Under the pieces are notes generated by a model. It worked only from the letters and a program-made list of their open reading frames with translations, was not told where the DNA came from and did not search any database. Shown here piece by piece: positions 13,825-64,000 of a stretch of 64,000 nucleotides of DNA (positions within the stretch are counted from its first letter, which is position 1; every line of letters starts with the position of its first letter). The translations under genes and the position numbers were made by a program. Origin of the DNA: Planctomycetota bacterium (GTDB taxonomy: Bacteria > Planctomycetota > MHYJ01 > JACQXL01); contig JACRIK010000021.1 in the NCBI GenBank assembly GCA_016235865.1, positions 97,226 to 161,225 of the forward strand, written 5' to 3'.

Positions 13825-13913
13825 TTGACCCCGCACATAAATAGTGTTAGAAAACCACACTACAAATAATAACTAAATTAGTACTGTATGTACTGCTTAT
13901 GTGCGGGGTTGAC
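13825..13913. repeat. TTGACCCCGCACATAA...TTATGTGCGGGGTTGAC inverted-repeat element upstream of efp
   Basis: 16/17-bp arms separated by 56 bp. Confidence 0.8.
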
Positions 13914-22077: not shown

Positions 22078-22455
22078 GCGACCATAGAGTATCCCCTAAG
22101 CGGGGGCGGTCTATCCCCTAAGCGGGGATGGGCTATCCCCTAAGCGGGGAGGGGCTATCCCCTAAGCGGGGACGGGCTATCCTCTAAGCGGGGAGGGACT
22201 ACCCCCTAAGCGAGGGTGGACTATCCCCTAAGCTGGGAGGGGCTACCCCCTAAGCGGGGTGGGGCTACCCCCTAAGCGGGGATGGGCTATCCCCTAAGCG
22301 AGGTGGGGCTATCCCCTATGCGAGGTAGGGCTATCCCCTAAGCGAGGTGGGACTATTCCCTAAGCCGGGACGGGCTATCCCCTAAGCGGGGACGGACTAT
22401 CCCCTAAGCCGGGAGGGGCTACCCCCTAAGCGGGGATGGGCTATCCCCTATGCGA
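22078..22455. repeat. tandem array, ~17 copies of 22-bp unit CTATCCCCTAAGCGGGGATGGG
   Basis: head-to-tail copies with point variation, no spacers; stops in all frames. Confidence 0.9.
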
Positions 22456-22661
22456 GGATGGGGTATCACGGGTGCGGGGATGGGGGGAGGGGGGAGGGGG
22501 GATACCCCACCCCCCACCGTCTGAACCGGTTTTTGAGATAATAACTTTATGGATAAATGGTTACGCCAAAACCCGAGTGATTTTGGTAGCAGATTTCAGC
22601 CCGGATTACTTATTTAACGAGACATTAGACGACTTTTGGGGGTCGATATTGGCCTTTTGTT

Positions 22662-23636
22662 CTATGTCCCGCCAGAAGATAGGGCCAATGCGGCTGCGCC
22701 TAAGAGGCCGGCATCCTCGCCTAATTTGGCCGGGACAATCAGGGGCTTGCGATAGGGGTGTTTCATTATACTTGCCTTGACTACCTGACGCAGGGGTTTG
22801 AACAGAATCTCACCGGCCTGAGCCACTCCGCCGCCGATTACCACCATCTCCGGGTCAAAGATGTTAATCAGCGATGCGCAGGCCAGACCGAGATAATGGG
22901 CGGTGTCTTGAACAACTTCGCGGGCGAGTTTGTCGCCTTTTCTGGCTTTGTCAAATATTGTTTTAGCAGTAATGTCGTGCGTCTTGCGTCCTACGTCTTG
23001 CGTCCGGACGCCCAACGCATAACGCCCAACGCATAACGCATAGCGTTCTACAATGGCCGGTGCGCTGACCAGCGCTTCCAGATGCCCGGGTTTCCCGCAA
23101 CTGCAGTCCGGGCCATTGGGGTCTACGTTCATATGCCCGATTTCAGCGGCATAGAAATGCGAGCCGCGATATATCTGGTTGTCAATGATAATCCCGCCGC
23201 CTACGCCGGTGCCTAAGGTCAGGCAGATGAGATTCGTTGCTTTCTTCCCAGCGCCCCAGCATTTCTCACCCCAGCCGGCCAAATTGGCATCGTTGTCTAT
23301 GAAGACGGGTATTTTGAGCGCCTTCTCAAGCTCCTGTTTTACCTTCGTGCCTTTCCAGCCAATCAGATTGGGGGAGTCAGCCAGGATAATGCCTCTTTCA
23401 GCGTCAATAGAGCCGGGACAGGCGAGGCCGACACCGCGAACGGAATGACGAATGACGAATGACGAATGACGAATAACTTGATTGACTAATTGGGCAATGA
23501 GCCGGATGCCTTGTTTGCCATTGGGTGCTTTCGAGAAAGAGACCTTTTTCCTGGCCTTGATATGGCCGTTTTGGTCCACCAGCGCCGCGGTGATGTGGCT
23601 GCCGCCTAAATCGATACCAATAGCAAATTTGGTCAT
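22662..23636 (-). CDS. ROK family sugar kinase (glucokinase-like)
   Basis: 324 aa; 'KFAIGIDLGGSHITAALVD', CxCGxxGHLE zinc motif; contains in-frame repeat insertions. Confidence 0.8.
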   Translation of the reverse strand: MTKFAIGIDLGGSHITAALVDQNGHIKARKKVSFSKAPNGKQGIRLIAQLVNQVIRHSSFVIRHSVRGVGLACPGSIDAERGIILADSPNLIGWKGTKVKQELEKALKIPVFIDNDANLAGWGEKCWGAGKKATNLICLTLGTGVGGGIIIDNQIYRGSHFYAAEIGHMNVDPNGPDCSCGKPGHLEALVSAPAIVERYALCVGRYALGVRTQDVGRKTHDITAKTIFDKARKGDKLAREVVQDTAHYLGLACASLINIFDPEMVVIGGGVAQAGEILFKPLRQVVKASIMKHPYRKPLIVPAKLGEDAGLLGAAALALSSGGT

Positions 23637-23653
23637 AAGATGTATATAGTAAA

Positions 23654-23696
23654 ATCCCCCTTAATCCCCCTTTTGCAAAGGGGGAAGGGGGATTAG
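23654..23696 (-). terminator. nested poly-C/poly-G palindrome, candidate terminator for por operon
   Basis: atcccccttaatcccccttttgcaaagggggaagggggat, perfect nested inverted repeat directly downstream of porB. Confidence 0.4.
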
Positions 23697-23715
23697 AGCA
23701 AATAGTCCTATAACC

Positions 23716-24717
23716 TTAAGTGCCAACCGTCTCAAGGTCAGGTTTTTTGTCGCCCTGATTACACTTCTTGAGCAGTTTTTCCCATTCCTTATCCACATTG
23801 GCCTGGAGTTTGTTGATAAGCTCCTGGTTCGGTCCGCTCCGGTGGGTGCTCCCGGTCTCTGCGGAGTTCCCGCCCTTGGCGAAGATGTGCTTGAACCGGC
23901 CCTGGGGCTTGAGCCATTCGGTGATGGGTTTCTTTTCCTTGGGGATATAATTGAGTTTGTATTCCCCGTTTTCCACTTCATAAAGCGGCCAGTAGCAGGT
24001 ATCAGCCGCAATCCGGGCCAGGTTGATGGAGTCCTTCATCTCGTTTCGCCAGCCCCGGTGGCAGGGCGAGAGGATATTCAGGAAGCTCGGGCCGTCAGCG
24101 GCCAGTGCCTTTTTGACCTTGGTCATCAGGTCGCGCCAATGGGCCGGCGTGGTCTGGGCCAGGTAGGGGATATTATGGGCTGCCACGATGCCGGTCAGGT
24201 CCTTGCGGAAGACCGGTTTGCCGTAACTGGCCGAGCCGGCCGGGGTAGTGGTGGTGGAAGCGCCCATTGGGGTGGCGCCGGAGCGCTGGATGCCGGTATT
24301 CATATAGGCCTCGTTGTTGTAGCAGACATAGAGGAACTTGTGGCCGCGTTCCAATGCGCCGGAAAGCGCCTGCAAGCCGATATCAAAGGTCCCGCCGTCG
24401 CCGCCCACGGCGATGAATTTAATGGTCTTGGTAACCTTGCCCTGGCGTTTGAGCGACTGGTAAGCGGCCTCGATGCCGGAGATGGTCGCGGCCGAATTCT
24501 CGAAGGCGCTGTGAATCCAGTTGCATTTCCAGGCCGTATACGGATAGGTGGCGGTGGCCACATAGAGACAGCCGGTAGCCACGGACATAACCACCGGGTC
24601 TTCGGCGGCCATCAATATCTGGCGGAAGGTGGTTCCGGCGCCGCAACCGGCGCAAAGCCGGTGTCCGGAGACGAATGTTTCTTCCTTCTTGGATAATTCT
24701 TTTAAACTTAGTGCCAT
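23716..24717 (-). CDS. porB: pyruvate:ferredoxin oxidoreductase beta subunit (TPP-binding)
   Basis: 333 aa; 2-oxoacid:ferredoxin oxidoreductase beta family. Confidence 0.85.
   Translation of the reverse strand: MALSLKELSKKEETFVSGHRLCAGCGAGTTFRQILMAAEDPVVMSVATGCLYVATATYPYTAWKCNWIHSAFENSAATISGIEAAYQSLKRQGKVTKTIKFIAVGGDGGTFDIGLQALSGALERGHKFLYVCYNNEAYMNTGIQRSGATPMGASTTTTPAGSASYGKPVFRKDLTGIVAAHNIPYLAQTTPAHWRDLMTKVKKALAADGPSFLNILSPCHRGWRNEMKDSINLARIAADTCYWPLYEVENGEYKLNYIPKEKKPITEWLKPQGRFKHIFAKGGNSAETGSTHRSGPNQELINKLQANVDKEWEKLLKKCNQGDKKPDLETVGT
23828..23874. repeat. repeat family B module X inside porB 3' coding region
   Basis: ttcggtccgctccggtgggtgctcccggtctctgcggagttcccgcc. Confidence 0.85.
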
Positions 24718-24758
24718 AAAATTCCTTTCTTACTTAATTTTTGCGAAACGCCCCTTCC

Positions 24759-24827
24759 GTCATTCCCGTGTAAACGGGAATCCAGTAATCACATGGGGTC
24801 TGGATTCCTGCTTTCGCAGGAATGACA
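24759..24827. repeat. compound palindromic element (ATTCCC-N8-GGGAAT + ATTCCT-N8-AGGAAT) between porB and porA
   Basis: gtcattcccgtgtaaacgggaatccag...tggattcctgctttcgcaggaatgaca. Confidence 0.85.
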
Positions 24828-24838
24828 TAAAAGGGAAA

Positions 24839-26074
24839 TTATTCTCTTACCGTTAAATAGTCAAACACCTTATCAACCTTGCCGGCCTTGGCCACATCAA
24901 ACAATTTCTGGAATACCTTGTTGATGTCTTCCAGCCGGATATCGCGTCCGCCGATTCCATAGATGTAATTAATCATCAGGGGCTGTTTGGGCAGTCCGTA
25001 CATGGCAGACCTGACCTCGGTAAAGGTCGGGGTGCCGCCGGCGCCGAAGGCATCGACCCGGTCCATAACCGCGATGGCCTTGAGATGTTTCAGCGCGTTC
25101 TTGATTTCCTCTGCCGGGAACGGCCTGAAGATGCGGGGCTTGAGCAGCCCGACCTTGACGCCCTTGGCCCGGAGTTCATTGACCACCATCTTGGCCACGC
25201 CGGCCGCGGAATTGATGATGACCAGCGCGTATTCGGCGTCATCCAATTTGTAGGATTCGAACAGCCCGTATTTCCGGCCGGACATCTTGGCGAATTCCTC
25301 GGCCACCTCAAGTATCTTGGCCTTGCTGTTTATAATCGCCTCGGAATGCTGGCGTTTGTGTTCGGTATAATAATCCTGCAGGGCGCAGGCGCCGATAGTC
25401 ACCGGGTTATCCACATCCAGCAGTGAATTTATGGCTTTGAACTCGCCCACGAATTTCCTGACCGCCTCGTCATCGAGCAGGTCAACCCGTTCCACGGAAT
25501 GGGTGGTGATGAATCCGTCCATCGAGACCATGACCGGCAGGCGGATGTCCATATCTTCGCCGATGCGGACGGCCTGGATGAGGTTGTCATACATCTCCTG
25601 GGCGTTTTCGGAGTATATTTGGATCCAGCCGGAATCGCGTCCGCCCATGGTATCATCGTGCCCGCAGTGGATATTTAGCGGCGCGCTTAAGGAGCGGTTG
25701 GCTACATACATTATCACCGGTGTGCGCAGTCCGGCGGCGATGGGCAGCATCTCCCACATCAGGGCGAATCCGGCTGATGAGGTGGCGGTCATGGTCCGGG
25801 CGCCGGCGGCTGAAGAGCCGATACAGGCGCTCATGGAACTATGCTCGCTTTCCACCGGCACGTATTGGGTCTTGACCAGTCCGTTGGCCACGAACTCGGC
25901 GAATTCCTCCACGGCCTCGGTCTGGGGCGTAATCGGATAGGCGGCCACCACGTCCGGATTAATCTGGCGCATGGCCTCGGATACCGCGTTGTTTCCGGTC
26001 ATTGCAGCTATTCGGTTCGCTCCGGTAGGTGCTCCCGGTCTCTGCGGAGTTCTGGCGTTTTTGTTGTCTGTCAT
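24839..26074 (-). CDS. porA: pyruvate:ferredoxin oxidoreductase alpha subunit
   Basis: 411 aa; POR alpha family; repeat-derived N-terminal extension. Confidence 0.85.
   Translation of the reverse strand: MTDNKNARTPQRPGAPTGANRIAAMTGNNAVSEAMRQINPDVVAAYPITPQTEAVEEFAEFVANGLVKTQYVPVESEHSSMSACIGSSAAGARTMTATSSAGFALMWEMLPIAAGLRTPVIMYVANRSLSAPLNIHCGHDDTMGGRDSGWIQIYSENAQEMYDNLIQAVRIGEDMDIRLPVMVSMDGFITTHSVERVDLLDDEAVRKFVGEFKAINSLLDVDNPVTIGACALQDYYTEHKRQHSEAIINSKAKILEVAEEFAKMSGRKYGLFESYKLDDAEYALVIINSAAGVAKMVVNELRAKGVKVGLLKPRIFRPFPAEEIKNALKHLKAIAVMDRVDAFGAGGTPTFTEVRSAMYGLPKQPLMINYIYGIGGRDIRLEDINKVFQKLFDVAKAGKVDKVFDYLTVRE
26011..26057. repeat. repeat family B module X inside porA 5' coding region
   Basis: ttcggttcgctccggtaggtgctcccggtctctgcggagttctggcg (about 2 mismatches vs 23828-23874). 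Confidence 0.85.
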
Positions 26075-26134
26075 CTTAACGTCCCTTCTATAAGATACTT
26101 ACTTTTTTTACCGCGTCATTCCCGCCCCGTGTTT

Positions 26135-26227
26135 GTCATTCCCGCGAAAGCGGGAATCCACGGGATAAACTCCAGCGGGAATCTATACTTCTGGATTCCT
26201 GCCTACGCAGGAATGACAGAGAGTGAA
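26135..26227. repeat. compound palindromic element between porA and porD
   Basis: gtcattcccgcgaaagcgggaatcca...ctggattcctgcctacgcaggaatgaca. Confidence 0.85.
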
Positions 26228-26230
26228 TAG

Positions 26231-26524
26231 TTACTTCTTATCCTCCACCATCTGGATGGCCTTGACTTTATCCGGGCATTCCTCGGCGCAGATGCCGCAA
26301 CCCTTGCAGTATTTCAGGTCAAACTCGGCAATCTTGCCGTCCTTGACCTTGATGCAGCCATCCGGGCAGTAAATCCAGCAGAGCAGGCAGTTGGTGCATT
26401 TCTTGTTATCGTGCACCGGCTTGAGGTTGCGCCAGCCGCCGGTTTCATACTGCATACTACAGCCCGGGTCTTTGATAATTGAGCCGATAGGCATCTCGTG
26501 GCGATTCATTGTCTTCTTTGCCAT
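26231..26524 (-). CDS. porD: pyruvate:ferredoxin oxidoreductase delta subunit (2x[4Fe-4S] ferredoxin)
   Basis: 97 aa; two CxxCxxCxxxCP motifs. Confidence 0.85.
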   Translation of the reverse strand: MAKKTMNRHEMPIGSIIKDPGCSMQYETGGWRNLKPVHDNKKCTNCLLCWIYCPDGCIKVKDGKIAEFDLKYCKGCGICAEECPDKVKAIQMVEDKK

Positions 26525-26607
26525 ATTATTAATCTCCTTTTTAGAGCCAGTTAGGAACAGAGTGACTTACTGGGTCTTATCCCGGCAGTTTTTGCCGGGA
26601 CACCTCA

Positions 26608-27177
26608 TTATTCCTTTACTTCTGCGAAACCCTTTTTAATAGAGTTCAGGTTGCCCTCGACCACCTTGGCGGCGAATTTCTCGCCGAATGAATGTTTGAT
26701 ATCAGCCAGCAGACCGTCCAGCGAAACCACGTTGGTGGTCTTGACGATAGCGCCCATTATCGGCGTATTGGGCATGGTCCGGCCCAGTTCTGCGATGGAG
26801 ATGCCGGTGGCGTCCACGGTATAGATTTTATTGCCGTCCATCTTAAGTTTAGCGCGAAGTTCGGCCGGTGTCTTGGTGGTATTGACGATGATAATTCCGC
26901 CTTTATTAAGGCCTTCGGCCACGTTGACCGTATCCAGCAGCGAATCATCCAGCACCACCACCACATCCGGGTTGACCACGGAGCAGTAGAGCGAGAAATT
27001 ATCCTGGCTGACCCGGTTATAGGCGCGCATCGGAGCGCCCATCCGTTCCGGCCCGAACTCCGGCATGCCCTGGGCGTATTTGCCTTCGGTAATGGCGATT
27101 CTGGCCAGGGTCCGGGCGGCTAACATCGCTCCTTGCCCGCCCCGGGCGTGCCATCTGATTTCTGTTATTTTAGACAT
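26608..27177 (-). CDS. porG: pyruvate:ferredoxin oxidoreductase gamma subunit
   Basis: 189 aa; POR gamma family; gene order porG-D-A-B. Confidence 0.85.
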   Translation of the reverse strand: MSKITEIRWHARGGQGAMLAARTLARIAITEGKYAQGMPEFGPERMGAPMRAYNRVSQDNFSLYCSVVNPDVVVVLDDSLLDTVNVAEGLNKGGIIIVNTTKTPAELRAKLKMDGNKIYTVDATGISIAELGRTMPNTPIMGAIVKTTNVVSLDGLLADIKHSFGEKFAAKVVEGNLNSIKKGFAEVKE

Positions 27178-27207
27178 GTTTAGCGCTCCATTCTATTTCG
27201 TCTAAAT

Positions 27208-27237
27208 GTCATTGCGAGTATAGTCCCTCGCAATGAC
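27208..27237. repeat. related hairpin (gtcattgcgag..ctcgcaatgac) between porG and accD
   Basis: gtcattgcgagtatagtccctcgcaatgac. Confidence 0.6.
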
Positions 27238-27262
27238 AGAAAGAGGGTCTTTCAATAATCTC

Positions 27263-28102
27263 CTACACCAAATATTCTAACATCTTGGCCAGTTCTGCCT
27301 TCATATTCTTGCGGTCGATGACCCGGTCCACCAAACCGTGCTGGAGCATAAATTCCGAGGTTTGGAAACCCTCGGGCAGTTCCTTGCCGATGGTTTGGGC
27401 AATGACTCTCGGACCGGTGAATCCGATAAGCGCCCTGGGTTCGGCCAGGATGATATCGCCCAATCCGGCGAAACTGGCCATCACGCCGGCCATGGTCGGA
27501 TTGGTTAATATTGAGATATAAGCCACGCCGGCATCGTGCAAACGGGCCAGGGCAGCCGAGGTCTTGGCCATCTGCATCAGGGAGATGCAACCCTCATACA
27601 TCCGGGCGCCGCCGCCGGAGCCGGATACGAATATAAACGGAATCTTGAGTTCCATGGACTTTTCCGCGGCCCGGGCGAATTTCTCGCCTACCACCGAGCC
27701 CATCGAACCCATAATAAAACGGGAATCGGTCACGCCGAACATCACGTCTATGCCGTTGATTTTACCCTTGCCGACTATAACCGCGTCATTCATGCCCGTG
27801 GCCTTCTGGTCTTCGGCAACCTTATCCTTATAGGTGGACAGGGCCTTAAAACCGAGCGGGTCTTTGGAAACCATATCAGTCCAGTATTCCTCAAAGCTTC
27901 CCTTATCCATGGTTAGGGCGACGCGTTCCCGGGCGGTGATGGAGAAATGGTAATGGCATTCCGGGCAGACATTGAGCAGTTCCTTGACCTCGTTCTTGCG
28001 GACCAGGTTCTTGCAACCATCGCACTTGGTCCACTGGCCGTCCGGCATCTCCTTCTGGCGCTGGAGCACGAACTTCTTAAGGTTTCCCCATCCTTCAGAC
28101 AT
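27263..28102 (-). CDS. accD: acetyl-CoA carboxylase carboxyltransferase beta subunit
   Basis: 279 aa; N-terminal CxxC...CxxC zinc finger, AccD family. Confidence 0.85.
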   Translation of the reverse strand: MSEGWGNLKKFVLQRQKEMPDGQWTKCDGCKNLVRKNEVKELLNVCPECHYHFSITARERVALTMDKGSFEEYWTDMVSKDPLGFKALSTYKDKVAEDQKATGMNDAVIVGKGKINGIDVMFGVTDSRFIMGSMGSVVGEKFARAAEKSMELKIPFIFVSGSGGGARMYEGCISLMQMAKTSAALARLHDAGVAYISILTNPTMAGVMASFAGLGDIILAEPRALIGFTGPRVIAQTIGKELPEGFQTSEFMLQHGLVDRVIDRKNMKAELAKMLEYLV

Positions 28103-28191
28103 AGTTAGTGTTCTCCTTTATTGGTAAATTAATTTATGTAGTGTATCAAACACCAATGACCGGGTCAAGAGAAATCCTGATAAATAATTAC

Positions 28192-41563: not shown

Positions 41564-41619
41564 AACCGGTAATCAATATCAAATATCCTGGATGTAGTCA
41601 ACAAAATGCAACCACAGAT

Positions 41620-41697
41620 TTCGCGGATGACACAGATTAAAAATAATCAGTGAAATCTGTGAACACCGCAGTGACCGCGACAGCGAAATCTGTGGTT
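41620..41697. repeat. AACCACAGAT...ATCTGTGGTT terminal-inverted-repeat element
   Basis: 10-bp perfect TIRs, internal cacagatt/aatctgtg sub-repeats. Confidence 0.8.
41663..41693. repeat. repeat family B module Y (reverse orientation), intergenic, nested in AACCACAGAT element
   Basis: RC = ttcgctgtcgcggtcactgcggtgttcac. Confidence 0.8.
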
Positions 41698-43879: not shown

Positions 43880-44575
43880 ATGTCCGACTTCACTAAGAAA
43901 TCCTGGAAGTGCGTTGATATCAAGGATATTGATTGGGGCCAGAGGTTTGAGTTTAACGAGGATAAGGTGGATACCTATGTGTCGGACCTGCCCGGGGTCT
44001 ATCGCCTGGTTTATCGGACAATCCATGAGGGCAAGGATGGGTATTTTGTATTTTATAACGGCGAGACGGATGATTTATACAAGACACTGTGCGGGCATCT
44101 TAATCTCCTGAAGATTGAACTGCCACCGCCCAAGAATCCCTATAATGCCCCGGAGCATTGCATACAAAAGACCCTGCAGGAATACCCGTGCTATTTCAGG
44201 TTTATAATAGTCCGTTCAAAAAAGGAGCGGGTCCGGATTAAGAAGGAGCTTGATGATTCCATTATCCCCAAGGGCGAGATGGAATTCGCGGCCTGGGCCG
44301 ATAATTTCTTCCGGGTGTTGTCGGCCAACGCGGACAAGTGGTTTCCTCCGGCGGAGCGTCCTGCTGATTTTAGCGATGCTCTTGATAAATTTAATGACAA
44401 GCACAAGAAGTTTATGGCGTCCTATGATGAGCATCTCAAGGTGCAGATTAATCTTAGGGCCGCTGAGAAGAAACTGAAAGACGCCGAGCAGAAACTCAAG
44501 GATGAACAGCAGAAACGCAAGGAAGCTGAGAATGAAGGCGAGGAGTGGAAAGAGGGGAAGAATAAGCCGGACTGA
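43880..44575 (+). CDS. hypothetical protein with C-terminal coiled coil
   Basis: 231 aa ORF; weak GIY-YIG-like 'PGVYRL...GYFVFYNGETDDLYKTL'. Confidence 0.45.
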   Translation: MSDFTKKSWKCVDIKDIDWGQRFEFNEDKVDTYVSDLPGVYRLVYRTIHEGKDGYFVFYNGETDDLYKTLCGHLNLLKIELPPPKNPYNAPEHCIQKTLQEYPCYFRFIIVRSKKERVRIKKELDDSIIPKGEMEFAAWADNFFRVLSANADKWFPPAERPADFSDALDKFNDKHKKFMASYDEHLKVQINLRAAEKKLKDAEQKLKDEQQKRKEAENEGEEWKEGKNKPD

Positions 44576-44745
44576 TGATTAAAGCAACCCCCTGGACGGC
44601 TCAGGGGGACTGACCGATGACTGAAGCAACCCCCTGGATGACTCAGGGGGACTGACGGATGACTGAAGCAACCCCCTGGATGGCTCAGGGGGGCTGCGGA
44701 ATGACTGAATAAACCCCCTGGACGGTCCAGGGGAGCCATTTGCGG
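44574..44745. repeat. 4 tandem copies of ~42-bp unit each containing a CCCCCTGG..CCAGGGGG hairpin
   Basis: tgactgaagcaaccccctggatgactcagggggactgacgga x4 with point variation. Confidence 0.85.
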
Positions 44746-58768: not shown

Positions 58769-58850
58769 GCGCGGGTGGTGGAACTGGCAGACACGTAGGT
58801 TTTAGGAGCCTATGCCTCACGGCTTGCGGGTTCAACTCCCGCCCCGCGCA
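58769..58850 (+). tRNA. tRNA-Leu (anticodon TAG)
   Basis: acceptor gcgcggg/cccgcgc, anticodon stem taggt/gccta with loop ttTAGga, long variable arm, T-loop ttcaact; no encoded CCA. Confidence 0.7.
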
Positions 58851-58886
58851 TTAGAATCTGTTAAGCCGAAGGCTGTTACAGATTCT

Positions 58887-58942
58887 TATCCCGCACATAA
58901 CCAGATTCTGCGCATCAGCAAAGCAGTAGATTATGTGCGGGA
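58887..58942. repeat. ATCCCGCACATAA...TTATGTGCGGGAT inverted-repeat element between tRNA-Leu and clpB
   Basis: 13-bp perfect arms, 30-bp spacer. Confidence 0.8.
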
Positions 58943-58977
58943 TTAGAACGGGGAGAACAAAGAGGATAAATAGAACT

Positions 58978-61578
58978 ATGCGTTTTGATAAATTTACCAT
59001 TAAGTCACAGGAGGCCATGCATCAGGCTGAAACCATTGCCGAGAAAAACGGCCATCAGGAGCTCCAGCCCGAACATCTTCTGCTGGCTTTATTGGAACAG
59101 CCCGAAGGATTGGTTACGCCTATCCTACAAAAAGTCGGCGTTAATATCCAGCAACTGACTCAGCGTATCCAGGACGAGTTCAAGAAATTGCCTAAAATAG
59201 AGGGTTTTATCGGACAGATTTATATCTCTCCCCGCTTAAAGCATATTCTGGAATCGGCGGTCAAGGAAGCCGAACGACTCAAGGACGAATATATTTCGAC
59301 CGAGCATATTCTGCTTGGTATCTTTGAAGACAAACAGGGCGCTCTGGTTAACACGCTCAACGGCTTGGGTATAAGCAAGGACCGTATCTATGCGGCCCTG
59401 ACTGAGGTGCGTGGCTCGCAGCGGGTGACGGACCAGCAGCCGGAGAGCAAATACCAGACCATGGAAAAGTACTGCCGTGACCTGACCAAGCTGGCCCGGG
59501 AGGGCAAACTGGACCCGGTCATCGGACGGGAAGACGAAATCAGGCGGGTGATGCAGGTGCTCTCGCGCCGCACCAAGAACAATCCGGTCCTGATTGGCGA
59601 ACCGGGTGTGGGCAAGACTGCGATTGCCGAAGGTTTGGCTCGGAGAATTATCCAGGGCGACGTGCCGGAGCCATTAAAGAATAAGCGGGTGATGGCTTTG
59701 GATTTAGGTGCGTTGGTGGCCGGCACCAAATACCGGGGTGAGTTTGAAGACCGCCTCAAGGCGCTACTCAAGGAAATCGGCCAGTCCGAAGGCGAAATCA
59801 TATTATTCATAGACGAACTCCACACCGTGGTCGGCGCCGGAGCAGCCGAGGGCGCCCAGGACGCATCAAATATGCTCAAGCCGGCCCTGGCCCGCGGTGA
59901 ATTGCGATGCATCGGCGCCACCACGCTCAATGAATACCGCAAATACATAGAAAAAGACGCGGCCCTGGAACGCCGGTTCCAGCAGGTTCTGATCGGCGAG
60001 CCGACAGTTGAGGATACCATTTCCATCCTGCGCGGATTAAAGGAACGTTATGAGGTCCATCACGGCGTGCGCATTCAGGATGCGGCCCTGGTTGCAGCGG
60101 CAACATTATCGCAGCGCTATATCTCGGACCGGTTTCTGCCGGACAAGGCCATTGACTTGGTGGACGAGGCGGCCTCAGCCCTTCGGTTGGAACTGGACAG
60201 CATGCCCCAGGAGATTGACAACCTCCAGCGCCGGATAATGCAGCTGGAAATCGAAATGCAGGCGCTTAAGAAAGAAACCGATCCGGCCAGCAAAGAGCGT
60301 TTCGCCAAGGCCGACAAGGAGCGCAAGGATCTGAACGAGCAGGTTACCGGTCTGAAGGCCCAATGGCAGAACGAAAAGAAACTGATTCAGGAAACCAGCG
60401 GGCTTAAAGAAAAGATAGAAACTGAAAAGTTAAAATTGGAAGACCTGATGCGCAAGGGTAGTTTGGACAAGGTGGCCGAAATCCAATACGGAATTCTGCC
60501 CGGCCTGCAAAAGCAGCTCGAAGCCCAGAACAAGAAATTAGCCGAGGTTCAGAAGAAATCCCAGATGCTCCGTGAAGAAGTGACTGAGGAGGATATTGCC
60601 GAGGTGGTGGCCAAATGGACCAAGATACCGGTGGCGCGGCTGGTCGAAAGTGAGGTTCAGAAACTGCTCAAGATGGAAGAGCGCTTGAGCCAGCGTGTGG
60701 TTGGCCAGGATGAGGCGCTCAAGGCGATTTCCGATACCATCCGCCGGGCCCGGGCCGGACTCCAGGACCAGAATAAGCCCATTGGTTCATTCATCTTCAT
60801 CGGGCCGACCGGCGTGGGCAAAACCGAACTGGCCAAGGCCTTGGCCGAATTCCTGTTTGATACCGAAGCTGCGCTGGTGCGCATAGATATGTCCGAGTAT
60901 ATGGAAAAGCACACGGTTTCCCGGCTGGTCGGCGCGCCGCCCGGATATGTCGGCTACGAGGAAGGCGGGCAGCTGACCGAGGCCATTCGCCGCCGGCCCT
61001 ATGCCGTGGTCCTGTTCGACGAGATAGAAAAAGCCCATCCTGAGGTGTTCAACGTTTTTCTCCAAATCCTGGACGACGGACGCTTGACTTCCGGGCAGGG
61101 CAAGGTGGTTAATTTCAAGAATACTATTGTCATCATGACATCGAATATTGCCTCTGATGTCATGAAGGAGTATGCTGAGGCCAAATCACCGGACCCGGTC
61201 AAGGTCAGGCAAAAAGTCATGGAAGTCCTGCGCCAGGGTTTCAAGCCGGAATTTATCAACCGGATTGACGATATCATTATCTTCCGTCCGCTGGACAAAG
61301 CAAATATCATCAAGATAGTGGATATCCAGATCGGTCTGTTGCAGAAACGTCTGGATGAGCGCAAGATAAAAATCAGTTTGAACAAGGAGGCCAAGGAAAT
61401 GCTGGTTCTGGACGGCTATGACCCGGTCTACGGGGCCCGGCCGTTAAAGCGCCTGATTCAGCACAAGATCCAGGACCCGCTGGCGCTCCAGATGCTGGAC
61501 GGTGAATTCAAGGCCGGCGATACCATCAAGATTACCCCGAGTAAAAAAGATATCGGTGAGTTTGAGTTTAGCAAGTAA
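58978..61578 (+). CDS. clpB: ATP-dependent chaperone ClpB
   Basis: start at '[18 protein letters not shown]'; two AAA+ modules with coiled-coil middle domain; ORF-track start 58933 lies inside an upstream palindrome. Confidence 0.9.
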
Positions 61579-61603
61579 GATGGTGTTGGCAGAACAATAA
61601 ACC

Positions 61604-61708
61604 TTGACCCCGCGCATAATATTTGTATACTTATGTAATGGGTGTCAGATAAGATTGTTTATTAAAACTACTGACGAATGAATAAAAGGGTTTATGTGCG
61701 GGGTTGAC
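61604..61708. repeat. TTGACCCCGCGCATAA...TTATGTGCGGGGTTGAC inverted-repeat element downstream of clpB
   Basis: 16/17-bp arms separated by 72 bp. Confidence 0.8.
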
Positions 61709-61721
61709 ATCAAGAGGATAA

Positions 61722-62798
61722 TTGGCTACTCTAAATAATATGCAGATTCAGGAATCAATTGTTAATGCGGTGAGTTTGTTGAACGGATGCAAGGATTATT
61801 CCGAGGCGTTATTGAATATCTCGGAGGAAATACTGAATCATCTCAGTGCGGATAGCTGCGTCTTTTTCTCGGTTGATGCGGACGAGGTCATTCCCGATAT
61901 GTTCGCCGTGGTTGGAAGAAAGCCGCAGGCCCTGACCAATAAACTTTCTGCCAATAGTCGAAATACCATGTCATCCTGGGTGGTCCAGAACGGTGAGACT
62001 ATAATACTGGATGCTTCCAGTAATGACCCGCGTTATAGCGAGGAGTTAAAATTACTCGGGGCAATGGCCCAGATCGCGCCGGTTATTATAAGTATCCCGC
62101 TGGTCTGCGTTGGTTCTTTGGTCGGGGTGATGGATGTTATGGTCACCAGCCGGCGACATGTCAATAATGAAGAATTGATTCCGGTTAATCCGCTGATTAA
62201 TATTGCGTCATTGATTTACTCGCGGCGCTATAGCAACGGCCTGACCAAGCTGGCCGAGATATCGGTCCAGCTGCTGGAAGGCCGGGATTATTACACGCAC
62301 GGACACTCTATGCGGGTGGCTAATTATTCCCTGGCCATTGCCGATAAATTGGGGTTGACCGAATTGCAGAAACAAAAAATCAGGTTGGCATCTATCTTGC
62401 ACGATATCGGAAAACTCACCTTCAGCGATACGCTCTTTAAGGCCGACCGGGCCCTGACCAAGTTAGAGCTGAAGATTATCGAGATGCACCCGATTATCGG
62501 TGCCAATATCATCTCGGAAATCAATAAAAGCATCGCCACTGTCATCCGCTCCCATCACGAGCATTATGACGGCTCGGGATACCCGGATGGTTTAAAAGGC
62601 AAGGCCATACCGTTGTTATCCATGATTATTGCCATCAGCGATGCCTTTGACGCCATGCTGACCGAGCGGCCTTACCAGCAGGCCACCGATGTTAAGACGG
62701 CGCTTGAGGAAATCAAAAATAAGAGCGGCACGCAATTCGATCCTGAGGTTGTCAATGTCATGCTGGAATGCTACAACTCCGGGAAATTGCAGTGCTAA
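61722..62798 (+). CDS. GAF-domain HD-GYP phosphodiesterase (c-di-GMP signalling)
   Basis: 358 aa; N-terminal GAF-like; 'HDIGKL' and 'HHEHYDGSGYPDGL' HD-GYP motifs. Confidence 0.75.
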   Translation: MATLNNMQIQESIVNAVSLLNGCKDYSEALLNISEEILNHLSADSCVFFSVDADEVIPDMFAVVGRKPQALTNKLSANSRNTMSSWVVQNGETIILDASSNDPRYSEELKLLGAMAQIAPVIISIPLVCVGSLVGVMDVMVTSRRHVNNEELIPVNPLINIASLIYSRRYSNGLTKLAEISVQLLEGRDYYTHGHSMRVANYSLAIADKLGLTELQKQKIRLASILHDIGKLTFSDTLFKADRALTKLELKIIEMHPIIGANIISEINKSIATVIRSHHEHYDGSGYPDGLKGKAIPLLSMIIAISDAFDAMLTERPYQQATDVKTALEEIKNKSGTQFDPEVVNVMLECYNSGKLQC

Positions 62799-62813
62799 AT
62801 ATCAAGAATAGTA

Positions 62814-62858
62814 ACCACAGATAAACACAGATTAACACTGATTTTATCTAATCTGTGC
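62814..62858. repeat. AACCACAGAT-family palindromic element
   Basis: aaccacagataaacacagattaacactgattttatctaatctgtgc. Confidence 0.7.
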
Positions 62859-62920
62859 TACTCCATTGCCATAGTAATAATTCATATCTGGTATCGACCA
62901 GGAGTTTTTCTCTCCATTAT

Positions 62921-63019
62921 CGTCATTTCCGTGTAAACGGGAATCCAGTATTAGGTTTTTGGATTCTTCCTGAGTTTAATACGTAAATGCCTGGACTCCT
63001 GCCTTCGCAGGCGTGACAA
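62921..63019. repeat. compound palindromic element between GAF-HD-GYP gene and valS
   Basis: gtcatttccgtgtaaacgggaatccag...ctggactcctgccttcgcaggcgtgaca. Confidence 0.75.
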
Positions 63020-63079
63020 ACACGTGGTTGGAATGGTATGGGGAATAAGCTTGATAGATTATGGTGATTTGCGGCTAAT

Positions 63080-63123
63080 AACCACAGATTTAATTATCTG
63101 TGTATATCTGTGTAATCTGTGGT
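63080..63123. repeat. AACCACAGAT-family palindromic element abutting valS stop
   Basis: aaccacagatttaattatctgtgtatatctgtgtaatctgtggtt (3 direct ATCTGTG + inverted CACAGAT). Confidence 0.8.
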
Positions 63124-64000
63124 TTATAGTTCTCTTAGCGATTCCTTCAGATTTGCTTCCTGTTTGGCCAGTTCTTCCTGCCTGAGCAATTCTTTTTGGA
63201 GAATGGCCTGGGGCGCCCGTGATTTGAAATTCTCGTCGGATAATTTATTGGTCACTAAAGCCAGTTGTTCCTTGATTTTGATCAGGCGCTGTTCCAGCCG
63301 TTTTTTCTCCGCCTCCGGGTCAATAATTCCCTCCAACGGTATGAAAAGCTGCAAAGCATTGACGATTTCGGTGGCCGAGTGTTTGGGTTTGGCCAGTTTT
63401 ACGCCCATCTCTATCTTACCCAGATTAGCCTGATGCTTAATCAGTTCTTCATGCGGCCGAATGCCGTCCAGCGCTTTGCTCACTTCAGCCGAGATAATCA
63501 GGTCTAACGCCTGCTTGCGCTCGATTGTCATCTTATTGCGGATATTCCGGACACTCCGGATGATGCCGATATTTATTTCCATTGTCTGCTCAATCTGCTC
63601 GTCTATCTGCTTGGGCTCGGCCGACGGCCAGGTTGCACTCATCACTGATTCGCTCTGGAAATGTTCCGGATATTGCTCCTTAAACTTCTGCCAGAGTTCC
63701 TCGGTGATAAACGGGATGAAGGGATGGAGCATGCGCAGGGTATTGCTGAAGAGATAAAAAAGCGTAGAGCGTGTAGCGTTGAGCGTAGAGGCGTCTTGGC
63801 TGTATAATCTTGGCTTGATGATTTCCAGATACCAGTCGCACAAATCGCTCCAGAAGAAGTGGTAAATCAAGTGGGCCGCCTCGCTGAATTGGTAGGTCTC
63901 TAAGGCCTTGGTATAATCGCGGATGGTGGTGTTCAGGCGGGAGAGAATCCAGCGGTCTTCGAATGTGTCGTGCGTTGTGGGTTGTGTGTCTTGGGTTTTT
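63124..64000 (-). CDS. valS: valine--tRNA ligase, C-terminal part (gene continues beyond window end)
   Basis: 'DRWILSRLN...SEAAHLIYHFFWSDLCDWYLEIIKP' and C-terminal coiled coil; frame stays open to 64000. Confidence 0.8.
   Translation of the reverse strand, partial: KTQDTQPTTHDTFEDRWILSRLNTTIRDYTKALETYQFSEAAHLIYHFFWSDLCDWYLEIIKPRLYSQDASTLNATRSTLFYLFSNTLRMLHPFIPFITEELWQKFKEQYPEHFQSESVMSATWPSAEPKQIDEQIEQTMEINIGIIRSVRNIRNKMTIERKQALDLIISAEVSKALDGIRPHEELIKHQANLGKIEMGVKLAKPKHSATEIVNALQLFIPLEGIIDPEAEKKRLEQRLIKIKEQLALVTNKLSDENFKSRAPQAILQKELLRQEELAKQEANLKESLREL

Follow-up and report, generated by a model that had tools for sequence, protein, structure and literature searches.

Correia elements of Neisseria resemble the elements described here in being ~50–150 bp long and free of open reading frames (ORFs), in ending in terminal inverted repeats, in carrying a short target duplication and in occurring in many intergenic copies, and likewise in being co-transcribed as hairpins, whose junctions can give rise to promoter hexamers or keep existing ones. 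A second parallel is offered by GIY-YIG homing endonucleases, which reside in group I introns or are free-standing (I-TevI, phage Seg proteins); as in some of our elements, a selfish GIY-YIG gene lies within an RNA element that renders the insertion harmless to the host gene, and the ORF can be lost in situ. SLX1, a eukaryotic repair enzyme working with SLX4, cuts branched and stem-loop DNA, whereas no role has been assigned to the UPF0213 proteins (BH0048, EF2693; YhbQ-like), which have not been described as mobile either. In piggyBac, TTAA flanks CCC...GGG. IS1380 transposases serve as the prokaryotic outgroup of piggyBac (PMC10813416). Classical intervening sequences of 23S rRNA, some of them ORF-bearing, are known from Leptospira and Coxiella, and their ORF belongs to the S23p family, which is unrelated to GIY-YIG (PMC4990558). 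Closer to the present case, insertions in the rRNA genes of CPR bacteria include non-intron insertions with GIY-YIG ORFs and many short ones (<200 bp) that are uncharacterised (Tsurumaki et al. 2024, PMC11270868). These too are hairpin-like, some have a small ORF, and they occupy the tips of 23S rRNA helices, the helix-25 region among them; the terms ‘inverted repeat’, ‘hairpin’ and ‘palindrom’ are absent from the text of that paper, which does not describe terminal inverted repeats, target duplications or copies outside rRNA genes.

Here, we analyse three inverted-repeat elements in a 64,000-nucleotide stretch of a Planctomycetota genome (GCA_016235865.1, contig JACRIK010000021.1), hereafter the window. 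The three are mobile-element insertions, and the family to which they belong is mobile. Probably they are non-coding, MITE-like derivatives of a family of small mobile palindromic elements that is moved by a GIY-YIG nuclease.

An earlier sequence-only reading had placed the elements at 13825–13913, 58887–58942 and 61604–61708, and inspection of the sequence finds all three there, between the neighbours it had named: from PBP2 to efp, from tRNA-Leu to clpB and from clpB to a GAF-HD gene (HD_5), as annotated with Pfam and ARAGORN. With at most one mismatch allowed, CCCGCACATAA matches the window six times, which are the six arms, against 1.28 matches expected and none of 100 shuffles reaching six. 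The paired-arm pattern occurs at 3 sites (0.00 expected), all three elements have the arm pair CCCGC[A/G]CATAA / TTATGTGCGGG in common, and no extra or degenerate copy beyond them was found on searching the window. The inverted arms are perfect or near-perfect, as had been described, with a complementary part of 12 nt rather than 13–17 bp; the 16–17-nt arms that had been given, TTGACCCCGCACATAA / TTATGTGCGGGGTTGAC, take in the flanking TTGA, a direct repeat whose left and right copies are not complementary to each other. The centres vary as proposed (30–72 bp), with gaps of 30, 56 and 72 nt. Folded as single-stranded DNA, copies 1, 2 and 3 give z = -5.5, -5.4 and -3.3 against shuffles (for copy 1, -16.4 kcal/mol and z = -5.48). 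In Rfam 15 the tRNA alone reaches the gathering threshold in the window, and permissive E-values on the three elements return only generic hairpin matches far below threshold.

The copies differ in their interiors and surroundings (Table 1). The 56-nt interior of copy 1 recurs in no other copy among the 130 census copies listed. Copy 2 is inserted 2 nt past the hairpin at the 3' end of tRNA-Leu (58769–58850; ARAGORN, Rfam) and has only a 3-bp repeat, TTA, at its flanks (58886–58888 and 58943–58945). Its interior forms a small subclass common to loci L065 and L072, and the reverse complement of this interior resembles a 51-nt ‘class A’ consensus of Planctomycetota. In L072 (MAG JBBTIZ) an orthologous copy follows tRNA-Leu, with 89% identity to copy 2 across the element; synteny between the window and L072 stops about 6 nt past it.

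Table 1 Features of the three elements and their surroundings, in window positions
Feature	Position	Strand	Details and basis
Copy 1, left direct repeat TTGA (target-site duplication)	13825–13828		Sequence; enrichment of target-site duplications in the census
Copy 1, 80 bp, without ORF	13829–13908		Arms CCCCGCACATAA 13829–13840 and TTATGTGCGGGG 13897–13908
Copy 1, right direct repeat TTGA	13909–13912		Sequence; enrichment of target-site duplications in the census
Hairpin directly after tRNA-Leu, not part of the element	58853–58886	+	AGAATCTGT..ACAGATTCT; sequence
Copy 2, 54 bp	58889–58942		Arms TCCCGCACATAA 58889–58900 and TTATGTGCGGGA 58931–58942
Copy 3, left TTGA target-site duplication	61604–61607		Sequence; comparison with L123
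New left promoter-like match TTGACC-16-TATACT	61604–61631		TTGA + arm + interior of copy 3
Copy 3, 96 bp	61608–61703		Arms CCCCGCGCATAA 61608–61619 (one mismatch) and TTATGTGCGGGG 61692–61703
Copy 3, right TTGA duplication	61704–61707		First four bases of the older promoter-like site
Older promoter-like site	TTGACA 61704–61709, 17 nt, TACTCT 61727–61732, ATG 61740		Alignment with L123

The sequence-only reading preferred a MITE because the arm spacing is variable, and this preference is borne out by target-site duplications, an exact empty site, a nested insertion and the many copies and genomes. The empty site is that of copy 3. A relative, L123, aligns with window positions 59732–63963 at 85% identity and has the clpB/GAF-HD spacer without the element, base for base, with one TTGA where the window has TTGA-[96 bp]-TTGA. 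Copy 3 is thereby shown to have inserted after the window's lineage split from this relative. Across the census, 32 of 128 scorable listed copies, against 2.4 expected, have a direct repeat of 4 nt or more immediately outside the 12-nt arms; a recognisable duplication is thus kept in only about a quarter of listed copies. The target duplicated at insertion is usually 4 bp and sometimes 5 (22 duplications of 4 bp, 9 of 5 bp and 1 of 6 bp). These repeats comprise 17 different sequences and represent all four main phyla; both repeat copies show an excess of T as the first base and of A as the last, and among listed copies TTGA is the commonest target in Planctomycetota. In L105 (5459–5610) a 93-nt copy is nested within a 51-nt copy. 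Occupancy also varies between relatives: the window is unoccupied at positions where L120 and L087 bear copies, an absence stated for the window alone, the spacers being too diverged for base-for-base alignment, and junctions between ribosomal-protein genes hold a copy in some Patescibacteria, while in others the genes are tightly spaced. For copies 1 and 2 no empty site was found among the loci compared, and the flanking repeat of copy 2, at 3 bp, counts against our main reading, as does the small share of copies with a recognisable duplication.

The census comprises at least 120 loci with 130 copies in 853 kb, drawn from a collection of 596 Gb in which, by our own arithmetic, about 8 such loci are expected by chance. 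The 12-nt ends are common to copies from Planctomycetota, Patescibacteria, Bacteroidota and one gammaproteobacterial MAG, which means that either the elements have spread horizontally or the enzyme recognising them is very conserved. Single genomes can be densely occupied, with at least 23 loci in the Planctomycetota MAG219 and at least 10 in the gammaproteobacterial MAG CAZSQN. The ends are 12-bp terminal inverted repeats, [C/T]CCCGCACATAA, and all three window copies and the 130 listed census copies have complementary 12-nt arms; of 128 listed copies, 83 have C..G and 24 have T..A as the outermost pair. Arm spacing is 24–88 nt among listed copies within the scan's reach, and rare copies have a centre of 4–6 nt (for example L113 919–946, 11-6-11).

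What lies between the arms is far less uniform. MITEs normally share interiors within a family, and the mostly unique interiors found here are unusual: 78 of 130 listed copies, copies 1 and 3 among them, are singletons in a set in which many genomes are thinly sampled. Subfamilies among the listed copies include a 51-nt class with 12 members and several 93–95-nt classes. In five Patescibacteria copies (four distinct sequences) a small-peptide frame is open; it is not conserved in others, and we rejected coding of a small peptide there.

Recurring neighbours at listed loci are ribosomal-protein genes, rRNA, RNase P RNA and assorted housekeeping genes, the recurrent proteins being ribosomal proteins, ABC transporters, secretion ATPases and similar, and copies are also present in ATP-synthase operons. 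Spacers with copies are convergent in 16 cases, divergent in 23 and co-directional in 48, about random proportions. Some copies sit within structural RNA genes: in 23S rRNA in L071, inside and just before 23S in L049, in the helix-25 region of 23S rRNA in L127, between 23S and 5S in L115 and inside RNase P RNA in L108. At the related loci, too, no Rfam family matches the elements themselves. A search of 2.9 million viral contigs for carriage by phages gave no matches, and a literature search for the exact motif found no paper containing it.

The link to a nuclease comes from longer relatives. Versions of ~300 bp with the same ends bear a single gene, which encodes a 74–88-aa GIY-YIG nuclease of UPF0213/SLX1 type. 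Such arms surround a single GIY-YIG ORF at L066 167–476, L104 3635–3940 and L079 4655–4906, the element ORFs match Pfam PF01541 at E = 2e-17 to 2e-11, and among the loci listed GIY-YIG is the sole ORF type between these arms, at seven distinct loci. Independently fetched homologues (P0002, P0007, P0039 and P0042) likewise lie between CCCCGCACATAA-type repeats of 19–20 bp. More distant homologues are bounded by other inverted repeats, such as a 20-bp repeat with a TTGA duplication in L069 and the repeat CCCCCCACCAC common to L146, L149 and L152; altogether an inverted repeat hugs the ORF in 14 of 16 distinct GIY-YIG loci examined. At one and the same position in RNase P RNA, L130 has a gene-bearing copy and L104 a copy of 65 bp without the gene, and the 19-bp ends of the two are identical.

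The nuclease has the invariant residues Y5, Y16, G18, R26, H30, Y48, E50 and E62, and the closest solved structures are those of UPF0213 (E = 1.6e-16) and SLX1 (E = 1e-6), with which it shares the catalytic residues. It is a bare catalytic domain of ~85 aa without a DNA-binding domain, and I-TevI is less close to it than UPF0213 and SLX1 are. Only the full-length relatives have a GIY-YIG ORF whose catalytic residues are intact, and a tblastn search of the window and ~370 kb of Planctomycetota loci found no GIY-YIG gene, so that in the window's lineage this partner is a candidate only.

From these relatives we infer that the UPF0213/SLX1-related nuclease drives the elements. It may act on a hairpin or cruciform made by the element ends, and by analogy the cutting of branched and stem-loop DNA by SLX1 would suggest an enzyme suited to a hairpin-bounded element. 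The duplication would arise if the target were cut in a staggered manner and host enzymes then filled in the gaps and joined the ends, and gene-less copies may be served by the nuclease in trans. The joining step is speculative, because the GIY-YIG domain is a hydrolytic nuclease and not a strand transferase, and because we know of no GIY-YIG-only transposon with inverted-repeat ends and target duplications, nor did a literature search find one. In a wider form, which we put forward tentatively and as possible rather than probable, the CCCCGCACATAA hairpins are the non-autonomous tail of unrecognised ~0.3-kb autonomous elements whose sole gene, an 85-aa UPF0213/SLX1-like GIY-YIG nuclease, acts on the hairpin or cruciform of its own ends, and which colonise helix tips of RNase P RNA and 23S rRNA as well as spacers of highly expressed operons in at least four phyla.

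The nuclease gene could instead be a passenger that invades hairpin loops. In RNase P RNA P3 the ‘terminal repeat’ takes the place of the native P3 stem and a duplication is not seen, and identical RNase P RNA positions are used repeatedly, which leaves room for some homing. Unlike in homing elements, no intron ribozyme was detected at the related loci examined, and gene-less copies occupy sites that are not homologous and are flanked by target duplications, an outcome that homing does not give. A passenger gene is also part of the alternative that survives best, in which the elements are ordinary MITEs moved by a DDE transposase, with IS1380 as the best fit, and the GIY-YIG genes are passengers or secondary homing-endonuclease invaders. 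The likeness to IS1380 and piggyBac lies in 5'-CCCC...GGGG-3' ends, recalling the CC(C)...(G)GG ends of those families, and in 4–5-bp duplications at T..A targets like TTAA; a DDE enzyme would account for target duplications without further assumptions, and the GIY-YIG gene is absent from the Planctomycetota loci searched. The likeness is confined to ends and duplication, whereas no DDE gene with these ends was found in 853 kb. There, the recurring neighbours of the 130 listed copies include no transposase gene and no long-range arm pair encloses a gene of transposase size, while the seven loci with an ORF between these arms all have GIY-YIG. Moreover, GIY-YIG homologues of other sequence have their own tight inverted repeats, as insertion-sequence families do. 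On balance we consider movement by a DDE enzyme unlikely.

It is very improbable that the host retains the elements for a function in RNA, as a structured module or a processing site at which, for instance, RNase III would split cistrons or excise the hairpin like an intervening sequence. Transcribed places such as operons, 23S rRNA and RNase P RNA do hold copies, and in Patescibacteria operons 10 of 10 copies (about 7 of them independent) have one orientation relative to transcription. G-U pairs are somewhat commoner on the sense strand (88 versus 58), and half of the interiors are more structured than shuffles. Against this, sense and antisense folding energies are alike (21 versus 17, p = 0.18), no Rfam family matches even at permissive thresholds, convergent and divergent spacers have copies too, and the empty site and duplications are those of insertion at the DNA level. 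A hairpin that is tolerated or exapted may be true in addition, and would leave the origin of the elements unexplained.

A role as host cis-regulatory sites, whether as a heat-shock or stress operator or as promoters and terminators of the efp, clpB and GAF-HD genes, is more improbable still. Such a role had been proposed since all three elements lie upstream of same-strand genes and two flank clpB. The stress operator finds no support: among the 120 listed loci (853 kb) none has a clpB homologue, the recurring neighbours are the ribosomal, RNase P RNA and housekeeping genes named above, and the absence of the element from the orthologous clpB/GAF-HD spacer counts against an operator. Nor is there the fixed half-site spacing of CIRCE- or HAIR-like sites, the gaps varying within the window as in the census, and spacer orientations are about random. 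As for termination of the upstream gene, a consensus scan was negative and a T-run follows none of the three elements. Copies also occur inside rRNA and RNase P RNA genes, which counts against any host regulatory role.

The promoter proposal fares somewhat better, in that TTGAC-containing junctions are promoter-like matches; TTGACC is not a feature of the arm, TTGAC being the duplicated TTGA plus the next base. Copy 3 sits in the -35 hexamer of a pre-existing promoter-like site of the GAF-HD gene, which is rebuilt on the right side of the element, and its counterpart in L123 is a single TTGACA-17-TATTCT followed by the same AAATAATATG as in the window. Copy 3 would thus retain the old -35 box and add a second promoter-like match, and each copy would add a stable hairpin to its spacer or to a read-through transcript, in both cases probably with minor effect.

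Least probable of all is that the elements are tyrosine-recombinase sites, Xer/dif-like or folded like integron attC: the arm looks like the XerC half-site of dif in E. coli, GGTGCGCATAA, with inner ends ATAA..TTAT, a few copies have centres of 4–6 nt, and conserved arms around a variable centre recall attC, but nearly all listed copies have centres of 24–88 nt rather than 6–8, genomes hold tens of sites rather than one, flanking duplications are not a tyrosine-recombinase product, the attC R/L-box consensus GTTRRRY is unmatched at the R box by the sequences inspected, and neither an integrase gene nor a cassette context was seen among listed loci. REP/BIME and invertible-promoter readings were dropped on spacing, copy number and flanking duplications.

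Set against the described systems, the GIY-YIG-linked family that we favour differs from Correia elements in that its copies have only the outer 12 bp in common and mostly different interiors, in that its ends recur across several phyla, in that some copies are found within genes for rRNA and RNase P RNA, and in that the gene-bearing relatives carry a GIY-YIG nuclease and not a DDE transposase. Compared with the CPR rRNA insertions (PMC11270868), the same ends here link insertions in rRNA with those in RNase P RNA, in operon spacers and between genes of Planctomycetota. Hairpin insertion at the tip of a structural-RNA helix is seen in the relatives and not in the window copies.

In practice, the three repeats should be annotated as insertions of mobile elements rather than as sites that regulate efp, clpB or the GAF-HD gene. 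The elements account for at least a part of the short insertions that had been reported, uncharacterised, from rRNA genes of CPR bacteria, and they widen the phenomenon to RNase P RNA and to operons for ribosomal proteins and ATP synthase. If the wider form of our reading is true, stand-alone UPF0213-type proteins would gain a role and many short rRNA insertions an origin. If the nuclease drives mobility, the gene-bearing version would be smaller than any other autonomous transposable element known in bacteria, and a nuclease combined with host repair would be a new mode of moving DNA.

The three inverted-repeat elements proposed from a sequence-only reading are present between the genes it named (table), all six arms having been located by reading the sequence and by motif search. 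At one mismatch or fewer, the arm CCCGCACATAA has six matches in the 64-kb window, all of them arms of the three elements (1.28 expected; six reached in 0 of 100 shuffles), and the paired-arm pattern occurs at three sites against 0.00 expected. Searching the window with two mismatches or degenerate pairs gave nothing above chance beyond these elements. They are not regulon operators but copies of a mobile palindromic element, inserted with duplication of a short target and bounded by 12-bp ends, and the relatives described below strongly suggest that they are deletion derivatives of elements in which a GIY-YIG nuclease is the only gene.

Coordinates of the elements, their relatives and other repeats
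Feature	Position	Context
Copy 1 (80 bp)	window 13829-13908	PBP2, then efp
Copy 2 (54 bp)	window 58889-58942	tRNA-Leu, then clpB
Copy 3 (96 bp)	window 61608-61703	clpB, then GAF-HD protein
GAF-HD promoter-like site	window 61704-61742; L123 ~1870-1916	
tRNA-Leu 3' end	window 58843-58853	
Gene-bearing element	L066 167-476	Bacteroidia
Gene-bearing element	L104 3635-3940	Balneolaceae
Gene-bearing element	L079 4655-4906	Patescibacteria, between L24 and L5
GIY-YIG gene	L146 1201-1497	atpF/atpH junction, ATP-synthase operon
GIY-YIG homologue P0119	L156 ~900-1330	in or beside tRNA-like sequence
Other-arm hairpin spacers	L080 5001-5186, 6009-6117, 7146-7276	
Other-arm hairpin spacers	L079 3313-3483, 5533-5748, 6339-6413	
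Other-arm hairpin spacer	L090 3874-3968	
Second inverted-repeat family	window 41610-41697, 63080-63124, 62813-62860	
Tandem array, 17 x 22 nt	window 22090-22467	spacer after ORF ending 22026
Match to 22-nt array	L073 2873-3286	JBFMDM01 MAG
Tandem array, 42 nt x 3.9	window 44570-44733	

Metagenome contig L123, 85% identical to window 59732-63963, shares both the 3' end of clpB and the GAF-HD gene with the window. In the alignment its spacer between them reads ...ATATAAAAATTGACATTCAGGCGATAATCGGGTATTCTAAATAATATG, whereas that of the window reads ...AAACCTTGA[CCCCGCGCATAA...TTATGTGCGGGG]TTGACATCAAGAGGATAATTGGCTACTCTAAATAATATG (element in brackets); the 96 bp of copy 3 are missing base for base and a single TTGA is left. 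As target it used a promoter-like site (TTGACA-17-TA[T/C]TCT), at the -35 hexamer. Copies 1 and 3 both have the form TTGA/C...G/TTGA, which accounts for the TTGACC earlier assigned to the arm: the letters are there, but they are the TTGA duplication plus the arm's first base. A 51-nt copy in L105 is interrupted by a nested 93-nt copy which, together with the exact empty site and the flanking duplications, bears out the suggestion of a MITE, and mini-copies of barely more than two arms are still flanked by repeats (GTCAAG in L009, TAAAG in L048). Two further loci, L087 and L120 (MAG JBFMDM01), are occupied where the window is not, in spacers too diverged for boundary placement. Copy 2 is an older insertion: MAG JBBTIZ (L072) has the unit of tRNA-Leu and element too, at 89% identity over the element, and synteny stops a few bases past it. 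The tRNA-Leu 3' end (CCCGCCCCGCGCATTA), 35 nt upstream of copy 2, resembles the arm (CCCGCGCATTA vs CCCGCGCATAA), probably by chance.

A scan of 596 Gb (one genome per species) for CCCGCRCATAA, a 21-81-nt gap and TTATGYGCGGG returned at least 120 stretches against about 8 expected by arithmetic at equal base frequencies. By record title, at least 46 loci are from Planctomycetota (seven MAGs, JBFMDM01 supplying at least 23), at least 35 from Patescibacteria, at least 12 from Bacteroidota, at least 10 from the gammaproteobacterial MAG CAZSQN and at least 4 from Bifidobacterium dolichotidis; at least 13 are scattered single matches, several of which resemble ordinary terminators and may be chance. 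A search of 2.9 million viral contigs gave no match to the pattern. JBFMDM01 is closely related to the window organism (86-87% nucleotide identity over window 23149-28117). The B. dolichotidis loci (L042, L061, L077 and L092; NZ_QXGM01000002, 160-288 kb) are arranged differently from those of other phyla, CCCGCACATAAGC being very dense there as single arms, same-direction runs and 32-bp palindromes CCCGCACATAAGC-N6-GCTTATGTGCGGG.

The 130 census copies share complementary arms of 12 nt; just beyond the 11-mer, 83 of 128 copies have C at the left end and G at the right end, and 24 have T and A. A direct, not inverted, repeat abuts the arms in 32 of 128 copies, against 2.4 expected with flank pairs shuffled; it is 4 nt long in 22 copies, 5 nt in nine and 6 nt in one. 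The 17 distinct duplications are spread over all four main phyla: TCAA or TTGA ten times, TATG or CATA six times, CAAAG or CTTTG four times, and others including TTTCA and CATAG. Both repeat copies are enriched for an initial T and a final A, which makes T..A the preferred target. That just a quarter of copies retain the duplication is a weak point of the mobile-element interpretation. The inverted repeat runs at least 3 bp further inward in 51 of 129 copies (about 40%; 3 expected), with lineage-specific inner sequence, and, compared with interior-shuffled controls, half of the elements have a better fold (z < -2). Interiors are mostly unrelated (78 of 130 are singletons), the subfamilies being a 51-nt Planctomycetota class of 12 members, a three-member subclass with copy 2 and several 93-95-nt classes.

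Longer arm pairs in the loci collected by the census yielded three elements of about 300 bp (L066, L104 and L079) that share these arms and contain a single ORF each, of 74-88 aa, encoding a GIY-YIG domain (PF01541, E = 2e-17 to 2e-11). A protein search gave 247 homologues, almost all stand-alone and 80-100 aa long. Four of these (P0002, P0007, P0039 and P0042; 66-85% identical) have CCCCGCACATAA-type repeats, 19-20 bp long, at both ends, starting 10-25 nt ahead of the start codon on one side and overlapping the stop codon or coming right after it on the other; CCCCCCACCAC-type repeats flank P0070, P0104 and P0085 (46-53% identical), TCCAGCACCTAATTCA flanks P0078 and an imperfect 18-bp repeat flanks P0105. 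In L069, a homologue caught incidentally has the perfect 20-bp repeat CACTCACACCTAGTCGGCTT with TTGA outside it on both sides. An inverted repeat hugs the ORF in 14 of 16 distinct loci examined, the exceptions being L022 and L156; the latter has no inverted repeat, and the 8-bp direct repeat TGGCCTAG lies on both sides. Invariant in 19 diverse members are Y5, Y16, G18, R26, H30, Y48, E50 and E62, the catalytic constellation, and among solved structures UPF0213 proteins (1zg2, E = 1.6e-16; 1ywl) come nearest, followed by SLX1, a structure-specific endonuclease (E = 1e-6), with I-TevI a weak match.

Gene-bearing copies, like gene-less ones, occupy transcribed RNA genes and operons. By Rfam they lie in RNase P RNA at P3 and two other positions (L124, L126, L130, L149, L104, L148 and L152); at P3 the ends take the place of the native stem, without duplication, which is a weak point of the interpretation. 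One assembly has insertions in three rRNA operons (L127-129), in the helix-25 region of 23S rRNA after model position 583; S23p, the ORF product of classical 23S intervening sequences, is unrelated to this nuclease. In L146 the start and stop codons of the inserted gene are overlapped by its repeat ends, and the ATGA start/stop overlap is intact on either side. At one RNase P position L104 has a 65-bp gene-less copy and L130 a gene-bearing one with identical 19-bp ends, as would be expected if the ORF had been lost in situ.

The main rival explanation is that an unseen DDE transposase moves the elements and the nuclease gene is a passenger. The ends and duplication are IS1380/piggyBac-like, and no GIY-YIG gene is found in the window or in the Planctomycetota loci collected. 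Against this rival, the recurrent neighbour families of the listed census loci are housekeeping genes, with transposases not among them. In the preferred reading the nuclease would itself be the mobility enzyme, possibly recognising a hairpin or cruciform of the element ends, and host fill-in and ligation would complete the insertion. A catalogue of insertions in CPR rRNA genes (Tsurumaki et al. 2024, PMC11270868) places every GIY-YIG ORF in insertions other than group I or group II introns, and many others are short (<200 bp), uncharacterised and at stem-loop tops or bases; its text does not mention an inverted repeat, hairpin or palindrome. The published ORF of classical 23S intervening sequences is that of S23p (PMC4990558). 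Literature searches turned up no account of bacterial GIY-YIG genes with inverted-repeat bounds and target duplications.

The elements may in addition be tolerated or exapted RNA hairpins, although this leaves their origin unexplained. Gene-less copies lie inside 23S rRNA (L071 and L049), between 23S and 5S (L115) and inside RNase P RNA (L108), as identified with Rfam, in which no family matches the elements themselves. Copies of about 100 nt lie within conserved Patescibacteria ribosomal-protein operons at S3/L16, L13/S9, L17/L13 and L24/L5, junctions that are tight in other genomes, with identical orientation to transcription in 10 of 10 copies (about seven independent). Among 40 copies between co-directional genes, sense and antisense folding energies do not differ (21 vs 17, p = 0.18) and G-U pairs are somewhat commoner on the sense strand (88 vs 58). 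In a mobile element, the hairpin could make insertions tolerable in RNA genes by helix extension or RNase III excision. The Patescibacteria ribosomal-protein operons have extra 75-215-nt spacers, each with a hairpin of other arms starting CCC (CCCGCCCCAGTTTTA, CCCGTTAGAAAATT, CCCTCACCCTTTAC), some adjoining or surrounding CCCGCACATAA copies. Downstream of these CCCGCACATAA copies, an extension of 12-25 nt (GTGCTCAATTTT...) is conserved. In five Patescibacteria copies of about 100 nt (L075, L080, L053, L090 and L030) one frame of 41-48 codons in AT-rich DNA is open: its ATG is immediately inside the 5' arm, it crosses the 3' arm (..FMCGVL..) and it ends 30-60 nt downstream; other copies do not conserve it.

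A pure promoter or terminator role is countered by spacer types in about random proportion among the listed census loci (48 co-directional, 23 divergent, 16 convergent), and the stress-regulon operator once suggested by clpB falls away, none of the at least 120 census loci encoding a ClpB homologue.

Other repeats lie in the window. A second inverted-repeat family, AACCACAGATT...AATCTGTGGTT (nine matches at one mismatch or fewer against 0.94 expected), has interiors of more CACAGAT/ATCTGTG heptamers in both orientations and could be another mobile hairpin family or an operator-site cluster. The 22-nt array has a CCCC..GGGG mini-hairpin in each unit (TATCCCCTAAGCGGGGAGGGGC), and the JBFMDM01 locus matches it at several offsets; the 42-nt unit (GACGGATGACTGAAGCAACCCCCTGGACGGCTCAGGGGGACT) has a CCCCCTG..CAGGGGG hairpin.

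Locally, copy 1 would place a hairpin of 80 nt between PBP2 and efp and matches neither a promoter nor a terminator, and copy 2 sits after the tRNA-Leu hairpin with the clpB start 35 nt downstream of it. At copy 3 the right side would keep the old -35 box and the left side gain TTGACC-16-TATACT (10/12 match). The GAF-HD promoter-like site is conserved in the window and L123; the ATG follows the -10 hexamer by 7 nt, without a Shine-Dalgarno sequence, so the mRNA may be leaderless or nearly so. Because L123 has an empty site, it is likely that no window copy is required for expression.
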